DNA from: an uncultured Methanosarcinaceae archaeon
GTDB lineage: Archaea; Halobacteriota; Methanosarcinia; Methanosarcinales; Methanosarcinaceae
Reading direction: 5' to 3'
Assembly: GCA_963847185.1 (NCBI GenBank)
Contig: CAWJYV010000010.1
Span: 128,001 to 192,000, forward strand
Length of the DNA: 64,000 nt
Part shown: piece after piece, positions 37,123 through 44,739 of the stretch
Position numbering within the stretch: position 1 is the stretch's first letter
How the letters are laid out: every line of letters starts with the position of its first letter
Program-made: the position numbers and the translations under genes
The notes under the pieces: generated by a model
Told to the model about the DNA's origin: nothing
The model's input: the letters and a program-made list of their open reading frames with translations, nothing else
Database searches by the model: none

Positions 37123-37388
37123 TATCTTTGTACTATCTTTGTACTATCTTTTCGTCATCTCCGTAATTCTATTTTTTGTTTTATACCTTATTTATCAGAC
37201 ATGTTGGAACAAGCCGAAAAAATAAGTCAAGTCAAAAGTGAGTCAAATCAAATTAATTTCTTTTATCCTGGTAAGAAGTGTTTTAAACTTATAAACTAAC
37301 CAGTTTTATAAGAGATGCCATATAATTCTAATTGAGTTATCAGTGAACTTACTATAATTGAAGTGGAAGGTTTTTGAGGGGGGTAATT

Positions 37389-38408
37389 ATGGTAAATACG
37401 AGTTTTACGCGGGATATCCAGTATCCACCTTTGCCAATTGAAGAATGGGAAGATACGAAAAATACGCTGCATCTGTTTTTGCAGATCGTAGGAAAGATCA
37501 GGCTTGCATTGTTTCCGAAAATGAACCACTGGTGGCATGTGCCTTTTTATGTGTCTGTACGCGGGCTTACTACAGGGCCGATTCCTTACGAGGATATGAC
37601 TTTTGAGATGGAATTTAATTTTAGAGATAGTGGGCATGTTCTAAGGATCGAAACTAGTGAGGGAGGCTTGAAAACCGTGCCATTAAAGGGACTCTCGGTT
37701 GCGGGTTTTTATGATAAGGTATTTTCAAACCTCGACGAACTTGGGATCGTGATAGGCATTAAGCCTGTGCCCTATGATATTCCTAATGTGACAGAGCCGT
37801 TTGTAGCTGATTATCAGCATGCCTCCTATGATGAAGAATATGTGAACAGGTTCTGGAGAATCCTTGTACAGGTTTATTCGATCTTTCAGGCTTTCAGGGG
37901 CTGGTTTATAGGTAAAAGTTCGCCTGTGCACTTTTTCTGGCACCATGCTGACCTTGCTCTGACACGGTTTTCAGGCAGGCCCGTTCCTGTCAGAGAGGGG
38001 GCAAGTTCTGTTGAGAACGAGGCTTCTTCACATGAAATAATCAGTTTCGGATTCTGGGCAGGAGATAAGAATATCAGAGAACCGGCATTTTACGCTTACA
38101 TGTATCCGCAACCGGCAGGTTTAATGAACGAGCTTCTAAGCCCTAAGGAAGCCTTCTGGGATCCGGAAGCAGGGCTTGCTCTTCTCATGTACAACGATGT
38201 CAGGAATGCAGATTCGCCGGAAAAAGCGGTACTCGATTTTCTTGAAAGCGTATATCAGGCAGGGGCAAAAATGGCCAACTGGGATATCGAGGCCTTCAGA
38301 CTTTCTCCAGCCGAAAAACAATCTGAGGAGAAAATAGGAGAGAAAATTGAAAAGCAGGTTAAAGAGCAGCCAGATCTACTGGAAAAGCTGGAAAGGCCTG
38401 AAGCTTAA
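37389..38408 (+). CDS. DUF5996-like protein
   Basis: TLHLFLQIVGKIRL, NHWWHV, SPVHFFW, DLALTRFSGR, GFWAG, EPAFYAY. Confidence 0.8.
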   Translation: MVNTSFTRDIQYPPLPIEEWEDTKNTLHLFLQIVGKIRLALFPKMNHWWHVPFYVSVRGLTTGPIPYEDMTFEMEFNFRDSGHVLRIETSEGGLKTVPLKGLSVAGFYDKVFSNLDELGIVIGIKPVPYDIPNVTEPFVADYQHASYDEEYVNRFWRILVQVYSIFQAFRGWFIGKSSPVHFFWHHADLALTRFSGRPVPVREGASSVENEASSHEIISFGFWAGDKNIREPAFYAYMYPQPAGLMNELLSPKEAFWDPEAGLALLMYNDVRNADSPEKAVLDFLESVYQAGAKMANWDIEAFRLSPAEKQSEEKIGEKIEKQVKEQPDLLEKLERPEA

Positions 38409-38770
38409 AATATGCTGAAACAGGAAAGAAAGCTAACAGGAAGAAGAGAGAGCTTAGGTTTGCGAAGTTATTCTCTTCCAATGTCTTTTTCTACACCTTT
38501 TTTATCAGATTTTTTTCCATTTCCATAGATATCGATCAACACATTACTTTATGTTTATATTTATTTCTACAAAAGACTTGAAAAACTAATTAAGATCAAT
38601 GTTTATCCGTTTTTTGGAGTCACTTTCAACTGAAAATCGTTTCAATTAACACAAGAATGAGAAAAAAGCCAATTGGCTGCAATTAATGAGAATAGGGATT
38701 TTGAATAGCTTTACCTTTATTAAACGTGTAATTTTTAACTTAATTTTAAATTAAAGGTTTAGAAATATTT

Positions 38771-38828
38771 ATTTTATTAATTAAATGGTTTTAGGCCCTC
38801 TTTTATTATAAGTATATTTATATTTAAT
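38771..38828 (+). promoter_or_regulatory. Conserved bipartite promoter (upstream AT box plus BRE/TATA) of secreted-peptide gene 1
   Basis: ATTTTATTAATTAAA-N24-AAGTATATTTATATTTAAT; same elements and spacing at 42522-42465 on the - strand. Confidence 0.7.
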
Positions 38829-39083
38829 CTCGTTAATATTAGTTTATCTAGTGAAAAAAGCCTGCAAAACAATGAAAAATTTTCTCCAGAGCTTAAACAC
38901 CGAATAGAAACTGCAGGTACGTGAAGATATTAATCAAGTCCGTTTTAATATTTAATTCTTGACTGTAAGTCCAAAAATCACAGATTGGAGATCAATCGCA
39001 TTAGAGATTAGAGTCTCTTTCCAATGAGTCTCTTTCCAATGTGTGAACCCTTTCATTCAATTGAACAAATCAGGAGTATATTT

Positions 39084-39413
39084 ATGAAAAATAAAAGATC
39101 TGATCGAATCAAAAAGACTCTTATTATTTTGCTGGTGCTTTGTTTTGTATTGTCAGTAACAGTTGCATCAGCAAGCGCGGCTGACAATAACAAAGATGGA
39201 TACGATAATGGCTACAACAAAGGCATCAAAGATGGCAAAAAGCAGGGTCAAAAAGACTGCGAGCAACATGGAAGCAGTGATACCCTCTCGAAGATTCCTT
39301 CTCCTTCCAACAAAAAAAACTGGACCAAATCCTACAAAGATGGCTACGATAACGGGTACAACAAAGGATATATAGAGGGCTACAATCGAAACCGATACAA
39401 TTGTTTGAAATAA
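39084..39413 (+). CDS. Secreted small protein with GxxxG (DGYDNGYNKG) repeats
   Basis: AGGAG RBS; signal IKKTLIILLVLCFVLSVTVASASA; duplicated KDGYDNGYNKG. Confidence 0.82.
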   Translation: MKNKRSDRIKKTLIILLVLCFVLSVTVASASAADNNKDGYDNGYNKGIKDGKKQGQKDCEQHGSSDTLSKIPSPSNKKNWTKSYKDGYDNGYNKGYIEGYNRNRYNCLK

Positions 39414-40274
39414 TAAATCAAAAATAAAAAACAGGAAATAAGAAACAGGAAATTTTAAAAATCAAAATAAGGAAATTTGGTTCCCAGAGATGTATTAAAG
39501 TCATTAAATCAGGGATTTCACTAAAATAAAGGATTTTCTGTAATAATTTCTTTTTTAGGCACCCGGTTTATAATTTTTCAGGAGGTTATATAAATCGCAA
39601 TTTTTTCACAAGTACAATTTGTCTCATTATAATTATAATCATGATTCCATATCAGTTAAAATCATGATTTCATACCAGTTGAATTTATTTATCTAGATTA
39701 TTTAAATGCAAATAAATAATAAACGAAATATTTATTTATTACATATACTTACTTAATTGTAGTAAGTAGCCATATTCGACCTGATTTTGTTTAAGGTAGA
39801 AGGGTTAATGAGTATATATGATCAATGAAATCAATTCTTGATACTAAGCTTTCTGGTCCATGTTTTTAGTAATCACATAGGTTTATATTTATAAAAAGCA
39901 TTATATATTTATAATCAATCAAGGGTATAGTAGGTTTTGAATGAACCAATAGTAAACATGTTCAACAAACTGGGTTTATTTATAGACTCAATAATGAACA
40001 GTAAACATCAATGGGGATTGGGAGAAGCTGTAAATCATGAATGAGTCTGCAGGCATGAAGAATATTTCAATGAGTGGCTTCGCGATTATTTATTGTTAAT
40101 TTTTCCAGGGGCAGTTTTTAACATGCTCGTTAATAACAAAATCGAGATTGGATCATGGGGGAGCATTGATGATTCCTATAAAAGATATAACCCCTTTGCT
40201 TGGAAAAATACAGAGATTTTTTGCTACGATTTTAGCAGTTAATCTCCACAACCTCAACTTATAAAATTCATTCA

Positions 40275-41204
40275 ATGATAGAGATGAATCTGAGGTTCTA
40301 CATTATTTGCACTGCTTCTTTACTTGCTTTGGGGGTAACTATTATACCCACTTTAGGGGTACCTTTCTTAGCAGGCAGCAACATCACTGCAACAGTACAC
40401 GGGGCTACATATTCATGGGATACTTTTGAACCTCTAAATGATACCTTAATCAGTATTAATTCCAATCCCCTTCAATCAATAGTAGCAAAAGACGGTACTT
40501 ATTCTTTTGAATTGGCGCCCGGAAACTATATTATTACGGCTAGATACTACCAGAATAATACCCTGGTTTATTCCAAAGAAGCGTCTCTGAATATTGAAAG
40601 TGAAGGAAGTTATGTGTTCGATCTCCTGCTTTATCCCGTTTCTGTAAATCCAGTAACTGAAATAATTCCAGATGAAATAAATGACCTCAACAGTGCAAAT
40701 CCGACCGAGCAAACCAGGCCTGAATTTTCAGCTGTCAGGTACTTACCAGTAGCTTTTACGCTCTTTATTTTGCTCGGCGGAGGTTATAAACTTTCCAGAA
40801 AGTACGAAAAGATGAATAAAAACAGGTTTCAGGAAGGAAAGTTCAATACATCCGGAATTCTGAAAAAAGTTGTCGGTGAAGGAGTTATTTCCGAAGTGGG
40901 ATCTGAGTTCGGAAACATTGAAAAAGTAACCTCCGTAACAGAGTCAATAATAGAATCTGCAGATAATTCCGAAATTGAAATTGCCGCTTCTAGGAAACTA
41001 CCTCTTTCTGCAGATCTGCGCGAAGTTCTCGATATAATTCGAGGTCATAAGGGCAAGATTACTCAAAAAGATCTGCGCAGCAAACTTGAATACTCCGAAG
41101 TAAAAGTCAGCCTCTTGCTCTCAGAACTGGAAAAAAGAGGACTGATCAGGAAGTTAAAAAATGGGCGCGAAAACATTTTGGTCTTAATAGATGAAAACCG
41201 TTAA
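40275..41204 (+). CDS. Membrane-anchored protein with an extracellular beta domain and a cytoplasmic winged-HTH
   Basis: N-terminal hydrophobic segment, GTYSFELAPGNYIITA, TM YLPVAFTLFILLGGG, C-terminal ITQKDLRSKLEYSEVKVSLLLSELEKRGLIRK. Confidence 0.85.
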   Translation: MIEMNLRFYIICTASLLALGVTIIPTLGVPFLAGSNITATVHGATYSWDTFEPLNDTLISINSNPLQSIVAKDGTYSFELAPGNYIITARYYQNNTLVYSKEASLNIESEGSYVFDLLLYPVSVNPVTEIIPDEINDLNSANPTEQTRPEFSAVRYLPVAFTLFILLGGGYKLSRKYEKMNKNRFQEGKFNTSGILKKVVGEGVISEVGSEFGNIEKVTSVTESIIESADNSEIEIAASRKLPLSADLREVLDIIRGHKGKITQKDLRSKLEYSEVKVSLLLSELEKRGLIRKLKNGRENILVLIDENR

Positions 41205-41271
41205 ATTACATAACTTAAAATTTTAGTTATTTCAACTATCCGAAATCAAATTGAGTACAGCCTGTGTAAGA

Positions 41272-41752
41272 TTACCACTCTTAAAGGGGAGAGTATTCTT
41301 CGAGTCCACTCTCATTTTCTCGAAACTCAAAAACCACCAATTTTTGTATGACAATATTCTTTATTTATAGAATTGAAACTATACTTGTGGCTTTCCATGA
41401 GATGCTTTGTGGCTTTCTATGAGATACCAGGTTTCCTCTCGATACCAGGCTTCCTCCACAATACAAAGCTTCTTCTGTGATATAGTATGATGTTAATTAA
41501 ACACTGTCTAGTGAGTTCCGGTCAAAGCCAAGGGTTCGCTTCCAGCTTTATCATATCCTTGCGATAGAAGAAAGATATCTCTGTGGACATATGGCACTAA
41601 AAACAAACTCATTTTACAAAAAACAATTTAGAAATTAAATGAAAAACAGAAAAGACGAGGGTTCACTTTATTCCCGACCTCCAGAATCGGGGTACTCATG
41701 TCCCTCCACACCCCTTGCGCAGTAAAATTCCTTACCACCTCTTAAGGAAGTG
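41272..41752 (-). mobile_element. Probable non-autonomous IS200/IS605-derived relic
   Basis: Hairpin CCCGA...TCGGG at 41673-41691, related TTACCAC(C)TCTTAA motifs at both ends, short LGFDRN fragment recalling the TnpA N-terminus. Confidence 0.5.
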
Positions 41753-41816
41753 TACTACAAAATAACTGCTAGTTTAATTTAAGACAGGTTGCTTATAGCC
41801 AGTTTTACCAGCTATT

Positions 41817-42221
41817 TTAATGGTACCTGTTATAATCGTTATTCCAATTCCGATAGTTATTCTGCCACTTATTGTGGTTGGAGGACCATTTGTTATATTT
41901 ATGGAACCATTTCATATAAAGTGAGTTCCACTTATTATAACCGCCTTGCCACCTCTTATAATCATTGCCATGTCTCTTATCTCTCCCCCACTTTTTCTTA
42001 TCGTTGTCCCATTTTCTTTTATCATTATCCCACTTTTTCTTCTCATTTCCCCATTTGTTTTGTTCATTGTCCCATTTTCTCTTATCGTTGTCCCATCTAT
42101 TTTTCTCGTTGCCCCATTGATTCTCATTCTTCTGAGGTGCTGCGCTTACTGATGCAACTGTCACTGACAGCACAAAGCAAATTGCAATCAAAATGCCTAA
42201 TGTCTTTTTTATATTCAACAT
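41817..42221 (-). CDS. Secreted Trp-heptad repeat protein
   Basis: Signal IKKTLGILIAICFVLSVTVASVSA; 13 Trp spaced at 7 residues (WDNDKRK-type). Confidence 0.82.
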   Translation of the reverse strand: MLNIKKTLGILIAICFVLSVTVASVSAAPQKNENQWGNEKNRWDNDKRKWDNEQNKWGNEKKKWDNDKRKWDNDKKKWGRDKRHGNDYKRWQGGYNKWNSLYMKWFHKYNKWSSNHNKWQNNYRNWNNDYNRYH

Positions 42222-42464
42222 ACACCCTACCCCTAATTAGTTCAATCCCATCTTTGATACCAATAAATCAATATTGTCAATAAATCCAGATTTAATGCCA
42301 ATAAGTCAATGCCAATAAATCCGGATTTGTTAACCAGATTGTTTCTAAATGCGTTTATTTTGTTTTTTAAATTGTCTCTCCAACTATCTGCCAGCTGGCA
42401 GAAATTGACTTATTCTATTTGCCTTACCGATTATTCGCGGCTTGACAATTATAAAATTGGTTAA

Positions 42465-42522
42465 ATTAAATATAAACATACTTGCAGGGAAAAGGAGATT
42501 AAAAAGGTTTAATTAATAAAAT
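42465..42522 (-). promoter_or_regulatory. Conserved bipartite promoter of secreted-peptide gene 2
   Basis: rc ATTTTATTAATTAAA-N24-AAGTATGTTTATATTTAAT. Confidence 0.7.
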
Positions 42523-43110
42523 AAGTAATAATAAGGATTATATTTTTAAAATAAAAATTTATAAGCTTTTAAATCTATTTATATCCCTATACAATGCGTT
42601 TAATACTTATAAGATACCTTAAACTTCAAGTTTCGAGGATAATTTACTTAAAATCTCATGCATAAAAATTTTCTACATTTTTTCCAGAATGTAAAGGATA
42701 TATTTGTTTTCTCAAATTTAATTAATAACTCATCCATACCCTATTTTCCAAGTATTGCTCACAGTATTTCAATAATAAAATTTCTCACCTGAAGCATAAT
42801 TTCACTGCCGAGCAAAAAGAGATTGAAAGGAGATATTTTAGCAAATAAGTTTTTCTAAACCTTTGATCGTCTTTACAGTCGAAAGTAAATTCTGAATCAG
42901 TATAAAGCTCTTCAAAATTACCTTTTTCAAATAAACATAATATATTGTTTATTCAAATTTCCAGCAGAAACACAAAAGATTGCTATTACAGTTGTTAAAG
43001 CGCTGCTGGGGGGTAAGGTTCCTGGTTCTCAGTCCTTTTACTTTTCAGCTATCAACTGGCCACAATTCTTTTCTCCACACCCTGCAGCACTATTTTTTGT
43101 TTTTCCTGGC

Positions 43111-44739
43111 TTATGCCCTGTTCAGAAGCACCTTCATGTCCTCTTCAACTGTTGTATTCGGTCTGATATTGAAATTCTCTACCAGCACTTTGAGGACGTT
43201 GGGGGAAACAAAGGCCGGAAGCGTAGGGCCGAGAGTAATATTCTTTATTCCAAGGCTCAGGAGGGCAAGCAGGACGAGAACAGCTTTTTGCTCGTACCAG
43301 GCGATGTTGTAGGAGACAGGCAGCTCATTTATATCACTGAGGCCGAAAGCCTCTGCAAGCTTCTGGGCTATTACCACAAGCGAGTAAGAGTCATTGCACT
43401 GACCTGCATCTATTACCCTCGGGATTCCCCCTATATCGCCAAGATCCAGTTTGTTGTAGCGATATTTGGCACAGCCGGCTGTCAGGATTACCGTGTCTTT
43501 TGGAAGGGCTTTAGCAAAATCGGTATAGTAAGTTCTTTCTTTGTGCCTTCCGTCACAGCCTGCCATGACAATAAACCTGCTTATTGCTCCGCTTTTTACT
43601 GCATCAATGATCTTATCAGCAACTGAAAGGGCGGCTTCATGTGCAAAGCCTCCGATTATTGTTCCGCTTTCCAGCTGTTCAGGGGGCTTGCTCGTTTTTG
43701 CCTGTTTTATGAGGGAGGCAAAGTCCTTTGTTCCGTCTTCTTTTTCGTATATATGGGTAAGTCCTTCAAAGCCCACGACACCCGTAGTGTAGAGCCTGTT
43801 CCTGTATGATTCCCTTGGAGGGATTATACAGTTTGTTGTCATAAGGATTGGACCATTGAACTTTTCGAACTCTTCGTTCTGTTTCCACCAGGAATTCCCG
43901 TAATTGCCTGCGAAATTGTTGTACTTTTTAAAGGCAGGATATGAATTTGCAGGCAGCATTTCTCCATGGGTATAGACATCAATTCCTGTGCCTTTTGCCT
44001 GCTCAAGGAGCTGTTCAAGGTCTCGAAGGTCGTGCCCACTGATAAGGATTCCAGGTCTGTCTCTAACTCCTATATTAACTGCTGTCGGTTCAGGATTTCC
44101 ATAAGTTTCCGTGTTTGCTTTGTCAAGCAGAGCAAGGGCAGCTACACCTTTTTGCCCGCACTCAAGGACAAGACCGGTTAGAGCTTCTGCGCCCAGACGG
44201 TCGTCTGTAGTTGAAACAAGTCCTTTTTCTATAAACTCAAAGATTGACTCTTCTTTATAGCCGAGAATATAGGCATGATGAGCATAAGCAGCCAGCCCTT
44301 TCATTCCATAAGTCAAAAGTTCCCTGAGAGATCTTATATCCTCATTTGCGGTAGAATGGACAGCAACATCAATCTCTTCTATATTTTCAGGAGTGATTGT
44401 AGCCACTGAAGGCAGGCTTTTTTCGGCAGCTATCATTTCCGGAGGTACTCTTGCCTTAATTGAGTCCCGGATTACAAATCCTTTCTTTAAATATGATTCA
44501 ATTGCCTGTTTGTCAAAATTGGTATTTGTAAGCGTTGCAAAGAAGCTGTCAAGCACAAACCTGTCGGTTGCTTCCTCATTAGTTCCAGCTTCTCTTGCTT
44601 TCAGGTTATAGAACGAAATGCTTTTAAGGACATAGAGCAGCCTGTCCTGAAGATCTGCAACCTCTCCCTTCTTCCCGCATACTCCATTTTTCGTACAGCC
44701 TTTTACGTTGAGTGCTTCCTGACATTGATTACAGAACAT
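43111..44739 (-). CDS. hcp: Hybrid cluster protein (hydroxylamine reductase)
   Basis: MFCNQCQE...GCT...[38 protein letters not shown]. Confidence 0.96.

Follow-up and report, generated by a model that had tools for sequence, protein, structure and literature searches.

In a 64,000-nucleotide (nt) stretch of the genome of an uncultured Methanosarcinaceae archaeon (hereafter the window; assembly GCA_963847185.1, contig CAWJYV010000010.1), three genes follow each other in the order A> C> <B, with A and B convergent around the middle gene C in the open reading frame (ORF) listing of the region. Gene A (39084..39413, + strand) encodes a protein of 109 amino acids (aa) with a signal peptide extending to ~39179, gene B (41817..42221, - strand) a protein of 134 aa with a signal peptide at 42141-42221 (cleavage site VSA|A), and gene C (40275..41204, + strand) a protein of 309 aa characterised from its ORF, Pfam matches, AlphaFold2 models and Foldseek comparisons. 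The reading that we favour, and to which we give a slightly better than even chance, is that A, C and B form a conserved, Methanosarcina-specific three-gene signalling unit in which C, a predicted membrane-anchored regulator, would control, through presumed binding, the genes that carry a common promoter/leader module.

A shared promoter/leader module precedes genes A and B

The regions upstream of A and B share a bipartite element composed of a first box, ATTTTATTAATTAAA (38771-38785, +, before A; 42508-42522, -, before B), and a second one, AAGTAT[A/G]TTTATATTTAAT (38810-38828, +, at A; 42465-42483, -, at B), separated by 24 nt at both genes. Exact matches to either box occur only twice each in the whole 4,039,532-base genome, namely at A and B; with at most one mismatch box 1 is found at 6 sites genome-wide, and with at most two mismatches box 2 is found at 10, 3 of the other 8 being located upstream of B-type paralogues. 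A motif preceding the ribosome-binding site (the pre-RBS motif) in the 5' untranslated region (5'UTR) is identical at 16 of 19 positions between A (ATTGAACAAATCAGGAGTA, 39060..39078, +) and B (ATTGAACTAATTAGGGGTA, 42228..42246, -), and the signal-peptide leaders (IKKTLIILLVLCFVLSVTVASASAA and IKKTLGILIAICFVLSVTVASVSAA) are identical at 20 of 25 residues (80%). Past the signal peptide, pairwise DNA alignment gave no convincing similarity between the two genes. These shared 5' features are far above chance and the observation is confirmed: the equally spaced bipartite promoter, the pre-RBS motif and the near-identical signal peptide, all three reported in the initial annotation of this DNA, were recovered. 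The likeness is explained by the descent of promoter, leader and signal peptide from one ancestor, that is, by paralogy.

Both boxes belong to a longer module of 135 nt, aligned here over 40 copies from 19 genomes. Its 5' end consists of a AAATTAAA box followed ~30 nt further on by CTTATTTTATTAATTAAAC, with the palindromic core TTAATTAA, and then by TTTTAAGC; at its centre stands a near-invariant (T)ATAAGTATATTTATATTTAAT, which we read as a transcription factor B recognition element (BRE) plus TATA box, followed by CnGGCnAAT(T/A)TTAGAATTGTCA; and its 3' end carries an inverted repeat, typically AAGCCG-loop-CGGCAAG, and then ACAA. In the same alignment ~60 nt upstream of the BRE/TATA element are conserved, which exceeds what a basal archaeal promoter needs. 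At A, the module covers 38742..38876 (+; nhmmer E 1.1e-18, covariance model E 1.2e-19) and includes the upstream boxes AAATTAAA (38748-38755) and ATTTTATTAATTAAA, whose AATTAAA words start 30 nt apart, as well as the BRE/TATA element AAGTATATTTATATTTAAT (38810-38828); transcription is predicted, from the TATA distance alone, to start near 38843-38848. The module of B occupies 42417..42551 (-; E 4.2e-24) and contains box 1, the BRE/TATA element at 42465-42483 and the leader inverted repeat TTGTCAAGCCG-loop-CGGTAAGGCAA, identified from the sequence and by a hairpin pairing test. Mean pairwise identity among 13 B orthologues was 77% in the module, 30% in the middle of the 5'UTR, 48% in the last 40 nt before the start, 82% in the signal-peptide coding part and 51% in the mature coding part; these values single out the module and the leader as islands of constraint. 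A fixed expression/export module thus exists, and the 5' unit from promoter to signal peptide is under purifying selection at both ends.

An nhmmer profile built from orthologous copies detected nine strong copies in the genome (E ≤ 1.1e-9), all of them preceding genes whose products begin with a signal-like segment: A, B, four B-type paralogues (C10:589264, C7:799622, C8:222996 and C8:224524, compared in a 360-nt upstream alignment) and three genes with other signal peptides, which encode a 308-aa protein, its 140-aa paralogue (these two forming another family) and a 112-aa PKD-domain protein. Two GY-type paralogues of A have no module. The B-type genes at C10:588890-589264 and C7:799248-799622 are nearly identical in coding region, 5'UTR and module, and their near-identity on two contigs indicates a recent segmental duplication. 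A weak, degenerate extra copy (42686..42856, -; nhmmer E 0.0049, E 2.3e-4 in a second search) lies upstream of the B module and has a counterpart in the closest relative (L025:6079-6249). This copy is probably a relic, and since other species have two tandem B genes, it may be the remnant of a lost second B copy. We considered a mobile element resembling a miniature inverted-repeat transposable element and set it aside, as the strong copies all have one orientation and stand before secreted-protein genes.

A covariance model of the module, sequence-only, was used to scan 59 Methanosarcina genomes and matched in 55 of them, with 2-19 copies each and ~360 matches overall; no match was obtained in G049, G008, G010 and G071. 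Larger module counts accompany expansions of the B family, as in the many-copy genomes G001 (19 modules, 11 B-family matches) and G005 (18 modules, 13 B-family matches).

Gene C encodes a predicted membrane-anchored regulator

The initial annotation described the product of C as an extracellular domain, a transmembrane (TM) helix and a winged helix-turn-helix (wHTH), and all three parts were found. The protein, which in most orthologues starts at the Met encoded at 40284, has an N-terminal hydrophobic segment, an ectodomain (residues 38-121, nt 40386-40637), a hydrophobic TM stretch (~153-171, nt 40731-40787), a variable linker and a C-terminal DUF7343 wHTH (residues 243-306, nt 41001-41192; Pfam match over residues 247-304 with E 3.1e-15 and 56.2 bits for a cut-off of 27.6). 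Over 30 orthologues, conservation is high in residues 36-123 and 243-306, hydrophobicity is kept at ~153-171 and the linker 176-240 is variable. The AlphaFold2 model agrees with this layout: its predicted local distance difference test (pLDDT) score exceeds 90 in a beta-sandwich at 38-121 and is ~87-91 in the wHTH (231-304), a helix is placed at 157-166, and the rest scores below 50. Foldseek matched the ectodomain to 6hif_Y (E 1.3e-5, target-normalised template-modelling score (TMt) 0.76) and 5aq0_B (TMt 0.68), so that the model assigns it a transthyretin-like/carboxypeptidase-regulatory fold. The hydrophobic stretch is followed by KLSRKYEKMNKNR and has, among the 30 orthologues, an invariant GG.Y and near-invariant L and A. 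According to the positive-inside rule, the positive cluster that follows the hydrophobic helix places the wHTH on the cytoplasmic side. C is thus a predicted single-pass transmembrane transcription regulator.

Public copies of C are named MarR family, HTH regulator, DUF7343 protein or uncharacterised membrane protein. We do not consider C a bona fide MarR protein because its MarR scores fall below the cut-offs (MarR 20.6 bits versus 24.6; MarR_2 23.5 versus 27); MarR proteins are soluble, dimeric and ~140 aa long, whereas C bears an ectodomain and a TM segment. No paper on DUF7343 was found in the literature, and sequence searches of the PDB returned no relative of the wHTH (best E 0.82), and none of A or the C ectodomain either.

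The spacer between A and C contains a conserved block (39700..39770, +), visible in the consensus of 24 orthologous spacers, with a TATA-like ATATTTATTTAT followed by AATTGTA; it is distinct from the module and is probably C's own promoter. Metatranscriptome contigs at 39813-39961 and 39930-40192 lie downstream of it. Several blocks of this 860-nt spacer (39420-40274) are conserved over the 24 orthologous loci, one of them including a small ORF (40093-40242) with a 39-aa version starting at an inner ATG, and RNA contigs cover 39813-40192; the spacer may represent a long, structured 5'UTR belonging to C, or else contain an upstream small ORF.

Conservation of the three-gene locus and association of the module with C

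An orthologue of C (E ≤ 1e-40) is present in 49 of the 59 genus genomes and in 35 of the 39 good-quality ones. We anchored the synteny analysis on C, using its 29 best-scoring loci with the window's own excluded. A lies upstream of C on the same strand in 25 out of the 25 loci with enough contig (among these 29 best, the contigs of the other 4 end earlier), and a convergent B-type gene lies downstream of C in 24 of the 29 best loci. Five loci depart from this pattern at the B position: L052 is on a short contig, L062 and L070 show no B-type gene within the 1.5 kb retrieved, and L066 and L078 have another payload, with the same leader fused to a different K/W/C-rich mature protein (L066:3524-3619 in genome G007; L078:2958-3092 in G047). 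In G047 the regulator gene exists in two nearby copies, with module copies near each. The module precedes the orthologues of both A and B. The synteny of the wHTH gene with the leader genes, on which the initial annotation depended, is therefore borne out by both counts. A set of 18 loci picked via B matches, and thus biased by its selection, included C 15 times and A 14 times. The B family itself was matched in 20 of the 24 other Methanosarcina genomes searched and in none of the 16 taken from other genera of the order.

Outside the triad, conservation of the two flanking genes, for a 344-aa protein and hcp, is limited to part of the loci. In the window, these flanks (37374-38408, +, 344 aa; 43111-44739, -, 542 aa) are 82-96% identical in several relatives, the 542-aa protein being, as we presume from its N-terminal Cys motif, the hybrid-cluster protein.

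The association of the module with C-like regulators extends beyond this locus. The genome has two further paralogues of C, at C10:514669-515858 and C2:58866-59972. Residues 1-189 and 225-309 of the first, the closest one, match in different frames, and its relatives have a single open frame of 409-436 aa; this copy is probably a frameshifted pseudogene or reflects a sequencing error, since it occupies two frames here and is intact in relatives. It has a divergent module 2.6 kb upstream, and regulators of this paralogous type, ~50% identical to C, have a divergent module 2.3-3.3 kb upstream in 7 of 7 cases (in G000, G009, G024 on two contigs, G057, G017 and G069). In addition, wherever a genome has exactly two modules, both flank a C-family gene (6 of 6 among the matches listed: G045, G011, G054, G073, G057 and G069). 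Because two-module genomes show this arrangement, a regulator between two module-driven genes would be the minimal, probably ancestral, state. The four genomes without a module match also have no C orthologue; two of them, G049 and G008, are 99% complete and encode just distant C-family paralogues (36-38% identical), and the other two, G010 and G071, are incomplete (79-80%).

More distant C homologues were examined in 13 loci with flanks, from DPANN archaea and one Methanosarcinales metagenome-assembled genome (26-55% identity in the best segment). In 10 of the 13, the divergent gene directly upstream encodes a signal-bearing protein of 300-640 aa, and these 10 secreted neighbours are mutually homologous (BLASTP E 6e-7 to 1e-164) and belong to no Pfam family. 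The C2:58866-59972 paralogue shows the same arrangement, with a neighbour of the same family (E 2e-17 to 7e-7). As the 10 distant loci and the C2 paralogue share it, the pairing of regulator and secreted neighbour predates Methanosarcina. A small acidic lipoprotein-like gene follows the secreted neighbour in 5 distant loci; the resulting series of lipoprotein-like, secreted helical (300-640 aa) and divergent wHTH genes (C2:57151-59972 (L088), L038, L040-L044, L046-L048 and L050) appears to be uncharacterised.

A predicted complex between A and the ectodomain of C

We predicted the complex of the C ectodomain (residues 29-150, alignment of 30 sequences) with mature A (34-109, alignment of 24). 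The interface score ipSAE was 0.73 (0.72, 0.73 and 0.76 in individual runs), as against 0.01 for the best of three controls; of 157 solved complexes, 116 attain this mark, as do 2 of 215 mismatched pairs, a calibration that is approximate here because our own alignments were used. Contacts agreed by at least 94% between runs and the partners had pLDDT values of at least 88. The tightest contacts join C 112-116 to A 67-71, inside the LSKIP motif of A, in a manner resembling an added edge strand, and the C-terminal GY helix of A (93-109) rests on C 41-51. Neither partner has a solved relative by sequence, so the result is unlikely to be the memory of a known complex. Besides the approximate calibration, two features weigh against the model: one of the docking partners is Gly/Tyr-rich and, by hand count, the interface is not clearly enriched in invariant residues relative to the rest of the folded domains. 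All in all, the model supports the binding of A to C, which we give about even odds in vivo.

Transcripts of the locus

The available RNA data are metatranscriptome contigs, among which those of runs X1 and X2 come from the same study. Two of them correspond to the B mRNA (41694..42430, -): a 735-nt contig from X1 and a 740-nt contig from X2, each with 6 other letters and 2 gaps with respect to the window. They extend from 41694 or 41711 to 42430 and include the full coding region, at least 209 nt of 5'UTR and ~106-123 nt of 3'UTR. Both stop at 42430, a position 35 nt downstream of box 2 that falls within the loop of the repeat; to our eye, and without the use of any tool, the letters of the X2 contig beyond this point resemble an Illumina adapter. 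Since both contigs end there, the B mRNA starts at or shortly upstream of 42430 and has a long leader. The TATA element TTTATATT is located at 42469-42476 and its last base is 39 nt from the contig end. Contig ends do not define a start, and the true one may be up to ~16 nt further upstream. Archaeal TATA elements lie ~25-30 nt upstream of the RNA 5' end; from this distance, a B start is predicted near G42446, in the ATTGT word of the module's presumed initiator region. The module at B appears to be a working promoter, and the 5'UTRs of the A and B mRNAs are put at about 210-240 nt. Expression of B from the predicted promoter region, as the initial annotation had anticipated, is thus visible in contigs that cover the whole mRNA.

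For gene A we found just one 42-nt piece over the signal peptide; both its ends are loose, and it therefore probably derives from a paralogue of another organism. Gene C is represented by short contigs on parts of the gene and on the long upstream region already mentioned. Runs X3 and X5 gave short pieces alone. Stretches without RNA cover do not indicate silence.

Proposed mechanism and alternative explanations

If A, C and B act as a unit, C would bind the upstream boxes at A, at B and at the dispersed module copies, which would define a small regulon of secreted-protein genes. Secreted A would bind the C ectodomain, so that the output would feed back on the sensor, either as an autocrine or density-type loop or through an accessory function comparable to that of ToxS; B and the other module-driven proteins would be the envelope or matrix output. 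The complete version of this scheme, in which A is the ligand of C and C, once bound, controls the module genes via the AATTAAA boxes, amounting to a protein-based autocrine or density-sensing circuit for exported envelope and matrix proteins, is a tentative proposal that we deem rather unlikely as a whole.

Several observations weigh against the control of the module genes by C. The probable promoter of C itself has no module. Six of the nine module copies of the genome are not beside a C-family gene (those of A, B and C10:514669 are). The upstream boxes are AT-rich and, in the paralogous copies of the 40-copy alignment, less conserved than the TATA element. Part of the conservation of the triad is ordinary local synteny, because the flanking genes are partly syntenic too, and the joint absence of module and C may reflect the history of one clade whose members are relatives and hence not independent. 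As for the transcripts, the contig end lies ~16 nt downstream of the predicted B start, and usable RNA exists for B alone, from one study and from a strain that departs from the window by 6 letters and 2 gaps in ~735 nt. Finally, RNAalifold gave no consensus structure over all 40 module copies, and support for the leader hairpin is modest.

The rival that survives best is paralogy without regulation, in which a genus-specific multigene family keeps a strong promoter, leader and signal peptide for the high expression and export that they confer, a soluble factor other than C or none at all acts on the module, and C has merely stayed next to A and B through ordinary synteny. The three similarities between A and B would then follow from homology of the entire 5' region, with no regulator needed, and the module copies located far from any C-family gene, the partial synteny of the flanking genes and the inferred nature of C-DNA binding are all in its favour. 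However, it leaves aside the module found 2.3-3.3 kb from each of the seven paralogous regulator genes, the six two-module genomes in which, among the matches listed, both copies flank a C-family gene, the secreted-protein genes beside distant C homologues in 10 of 13 loci, the A-C complex model that passes its controls, and the ~60 nt conserved upstream of the BRE/TATA element beyond the needs of a basal promoter. With these points on both sides, we regard paralogy alone as an unlikely explanation, though one of some substance.

Alternatively, C and A might form a complex at the cell surface without C regulating the module, A being an accessory or stabilising protein (as ToxS or TcpH) or one held at the envelope by the C ectodomain, and the targets of C lying elsewhere. 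The docking model, the strict co-occurrence of A and C (25 of 25 loci) and the pairing of distant C homologues with a secreted neighbour agree with this view, but A and the convergent B share the module, which also accompanies the paralogous regulator genes, and this is simplest to understand if the promoters of the neighbours are the targets; we judge this second alternative improbable.

A third one places the control on the mRNA: a protein or small RNA would recognise the inverted repeat together with the pre-RBS motif and so set the stability or translation of a group of secreted-protein transcripts, with the DNA boxes in a secondary role. Over the module alignment, the two arms of the repeat form standard pairs in 70.7% of cells, compared with 28-49% after a shift of the partner by 1-3 columns, with G-U and compensatory changes present; pairing as high as this was reached by 1 of 500 shuffles, a modest support for a structure that we specified ourselves. 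The RNA contigs end within the loop, and an A[AT]TTG word, related to the pre-RBS motif, occurs at -45..-15 in 10 of the 20 genes of the leader family described below, compared with 249 of 2022 long ORFs (12%); the sharing of this word therefore indicates that homology reaches into the 5'UTR. Against control at the RNA level, RNAalifold found no consensus among the 40 copies, and Rfam 15 gave for 38000-43200 only two chance-level matches (E 0.088 and 0.2), far below the gathering scores and neither on the leader. Synonymous codon identity in the signal-peptide coding part is barely raised (0.78 versus 0.67 in B, 0.74 versus 0.63 in A); the spread along gene C is similar (0.67-0.77), and we consequently regard RNA-level constraint on this coding part as weak and do not retain it. 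The inverted repeat may be an RNA hairpin or, equally, a DNA operator, and a role for it would be compatible with control by C rather than exclusive of it. As a replacement for such control, the RNA-level explanation is very improbable.

The leader family and the proteins encoded by A and B

Starting from the leaders of A and B, an iterated hidden Markov model (HMM) search of every ORF in the genome returned 24 matches at E ≤ 1, 20 of them strong (E ≤ 4.4e-7). The strong leaders have the form M-G/R-K-Q-x-F-D-R-I-K-K, with a hydrophobic core ending in FFVxS(L/V)TAA, then xSA. By eye, the signal peptides of both A (KNKRSDRIKK, TLIILLVLCFVLSVTV, ASA|A) and B (NIKK, TLGILIAICFVLSVTV, VSA|A) have the features of Sec substrates cleaved by signal peptidase I, namely a basic n-region, a hydrophobic h-region and a small-x-small cleavage motif, which predicts their export. 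The mature parts of the 20 leader genes, which are paralogues and so not independent counts, measure 104-552 aa and are Gly-rich, Cys-rich, GY-rich, W/K-rich or made of acidic repeats. Six of the 20 carry the module (A, B and the four B-type paralogues). The enrichment of the promoter at leader genes expected by the initial annotation is thus partial, since 14 of the 20 lack it and three module genes have other leaders. The broader idea of a co-regulated family of exported peptides fares similarly: the module at nine places and in 55 of 59 genomes and the 20-gene leader family speak for it, but its members are not loose cassettes. The notion of freely swappable payloads, in particular, fails, since A and B are old orthologues kept in place and the B-position payload was replaced in just 2 of 29 loci.

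The leaders of A and B are as similar within one genome (mean identity 0.731) as they are between genomes (0.728; 14 genomes compared). Gene conversion is therefore unneeded, and we rejected concerted evolution of the two leaders as a general effect. In four of the loci (L071, L073, L061 and L079) and in the window, the same substitutions appear in the c-region of both leaders (for example TAAAASA or TVASVSA in both), a sequence pattern that hints at occasional local gene conversion. Leader-family genes without the module, with MGKQxFDRIKK-type leaders, are clustered at C8:1011720-1029906 and C8:75765-77213; these clusters include Gly/Ser-rich proteins (354-414 aa), a CGGC-repeat protein and a DDLGIG-repeat protein.

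Mature A is a basic protein of ~76 aa (isoelectric point (pI) 9.2) in which Gly occupies each fourth position, five and then four times, in two GxxxG blocks around a central LSKIPSP motif; 24 orthologues have 29 invariant columns, including two Cys, and those in the fetched C loci are 50-69% identical. Its public homologues are named hypothetical or mis-called FliH. We discarded the assignments to Yae1_N (18.7 bits for a cut-off of 27.5) and to FliH (21-24 bits with NCBIfam models whose cut-offs are 180-293); such sub-threshold matches reflect no more than the shared GxxxG motif, with Gly at every fourth position. The Pfam Conotoxin match on the leader of A was also sub-threshold (E 0.13). Mature B has 107 aa, a pI of 9.96, a net charge of ~+14 and 13 Trp residues at an exact 7-residue spacing in two blocks, with one step of 13. 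AlphaFold2 predicts it to be a two-helix hairpin (helices 33-80 and 86-133; mean pLDDT 83.2, predicted template-modelling score 0.64), its number of heptads differs among species, and the ESM Atlas provided no usable look-alike (best score 0.75). The mature parts of A and B had been described as unrelated low-complexity repeats; they do differ, but with the 29 invariant columns of A and the predicted hairpin of B they are more than low-complexity filler. Possible roles in the methanochondroitin matrix, in binding to an acidic envelope, in aggregation or in antagonism are speculation from composition alone.

Comparison with known systems and significance

Transmembrane transcription regulators (TTRs), defined as proteins that combine a DNA-binding domain with one or more TM regions, number 1,384 in 367 of 404 archaeal species according to Demey et al. 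2023 (PMC10269533), and the part of that survey available to us mentions archaeal TTRs just for motility and pilin gene expression. C fits this class, having one predicted DNA-binding domain and one TM segment, as deduced from hydrophobicity, conservation and AlphaFold2. The initial annotation had likened it to ToxR. ToxR-ToxS, TcpP-TcpH and CadC of Gram-negative bacteria are membrane-anchored one-component regulators in which a small extracytoplasmic partner binds the sensor domain, and C is alike in its membrane one-component design and in its predicted extracytoplasmic partner. However, the order of its domains is reversed, with the ectodomain N-terminal (38-121) and the DNA-binding domain C-terminal, and the latter is DUF7343/MarR-like instead of OmpR/PhoB-type, no Trans_reg_C being found among the Pfam matches up to E 1. 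The C ectodomain also differs in being transthyretin-like, and the partner A in being a predicted secreted protein encoded behind a putative target promoter. As both the domain order and the type of DNA-binding domain fail, C stands outside the ToxR family, and only the membrane-anchored one-component principle of the earlier comparison is retained.

Among archaeal proteins, ArnR and ArnR1 reportedly have an N-terminal DNA-binding domain and target archaellum and pilus genes, and we know of no secreted partner for them. Like C, these proteins of Sulfolobus acidocaldarius are membrane-bound one-component factors for surface-structure promoters (PMC6396743). They differ from C in belonging to a different phylum and in domain order.

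Gram-positive autoinduction circuits that work with peptides, for example Agr and ComCDE, have the gene of an exported peptide beside that of its membrane sensor, and the circuit in turn acts on the peptide gene. The signal gene also adjoins the sensor here, where feedback would be hypothetical; those systems use a histidine kinase, a response regulator and short processed peptides, whereas here the signal would be the folded ~76-residue A and the sensor is itself a predicted transcription factor. Conotoxin superfamilies combine a conserved signal sequence with a hypervariable mature part, and the 20 genes of the leader family similarly join a constant signal peptide to divergent mature regions. 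However, conotoxins are Cys-knot toxins, the archaeal payloads are repeat-rich and basic, and A and B are stable orthologues across the genus.

We found no description of the module, the leader family, A, B or a protein ligand of an archaeal TTR in the literature, subscription papers and supplementary lists being outside the scope of this search. What is new is the context, that is, a predicted membrane regulator whose neighbours on either side are module-driven, with the product of one of them predicted to dock onto the sensor domain. The analysis also defines a Methanosarcina-specific signal-peptide family, a Trp-heptad hairpin protein and a GxxxG-repeat protein with two Cys. Archaeal transmembrane signalling is poorly understood and we found almost no ligands or targets described for predicted archaeal TTRs. 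This locus provides together a candidate regulator, a candidate protein partner with a predicted interface and a 135-nt candidate target element, in a genus, Methanosarcina, that has good genetics. If the proposed circuit is true, it would represent signalling between cells or at the cell surface of a type that we did not find described in archaea, and the regulator-secreted protein pairs of DPANN archaea would be ancient versions of the same principle.

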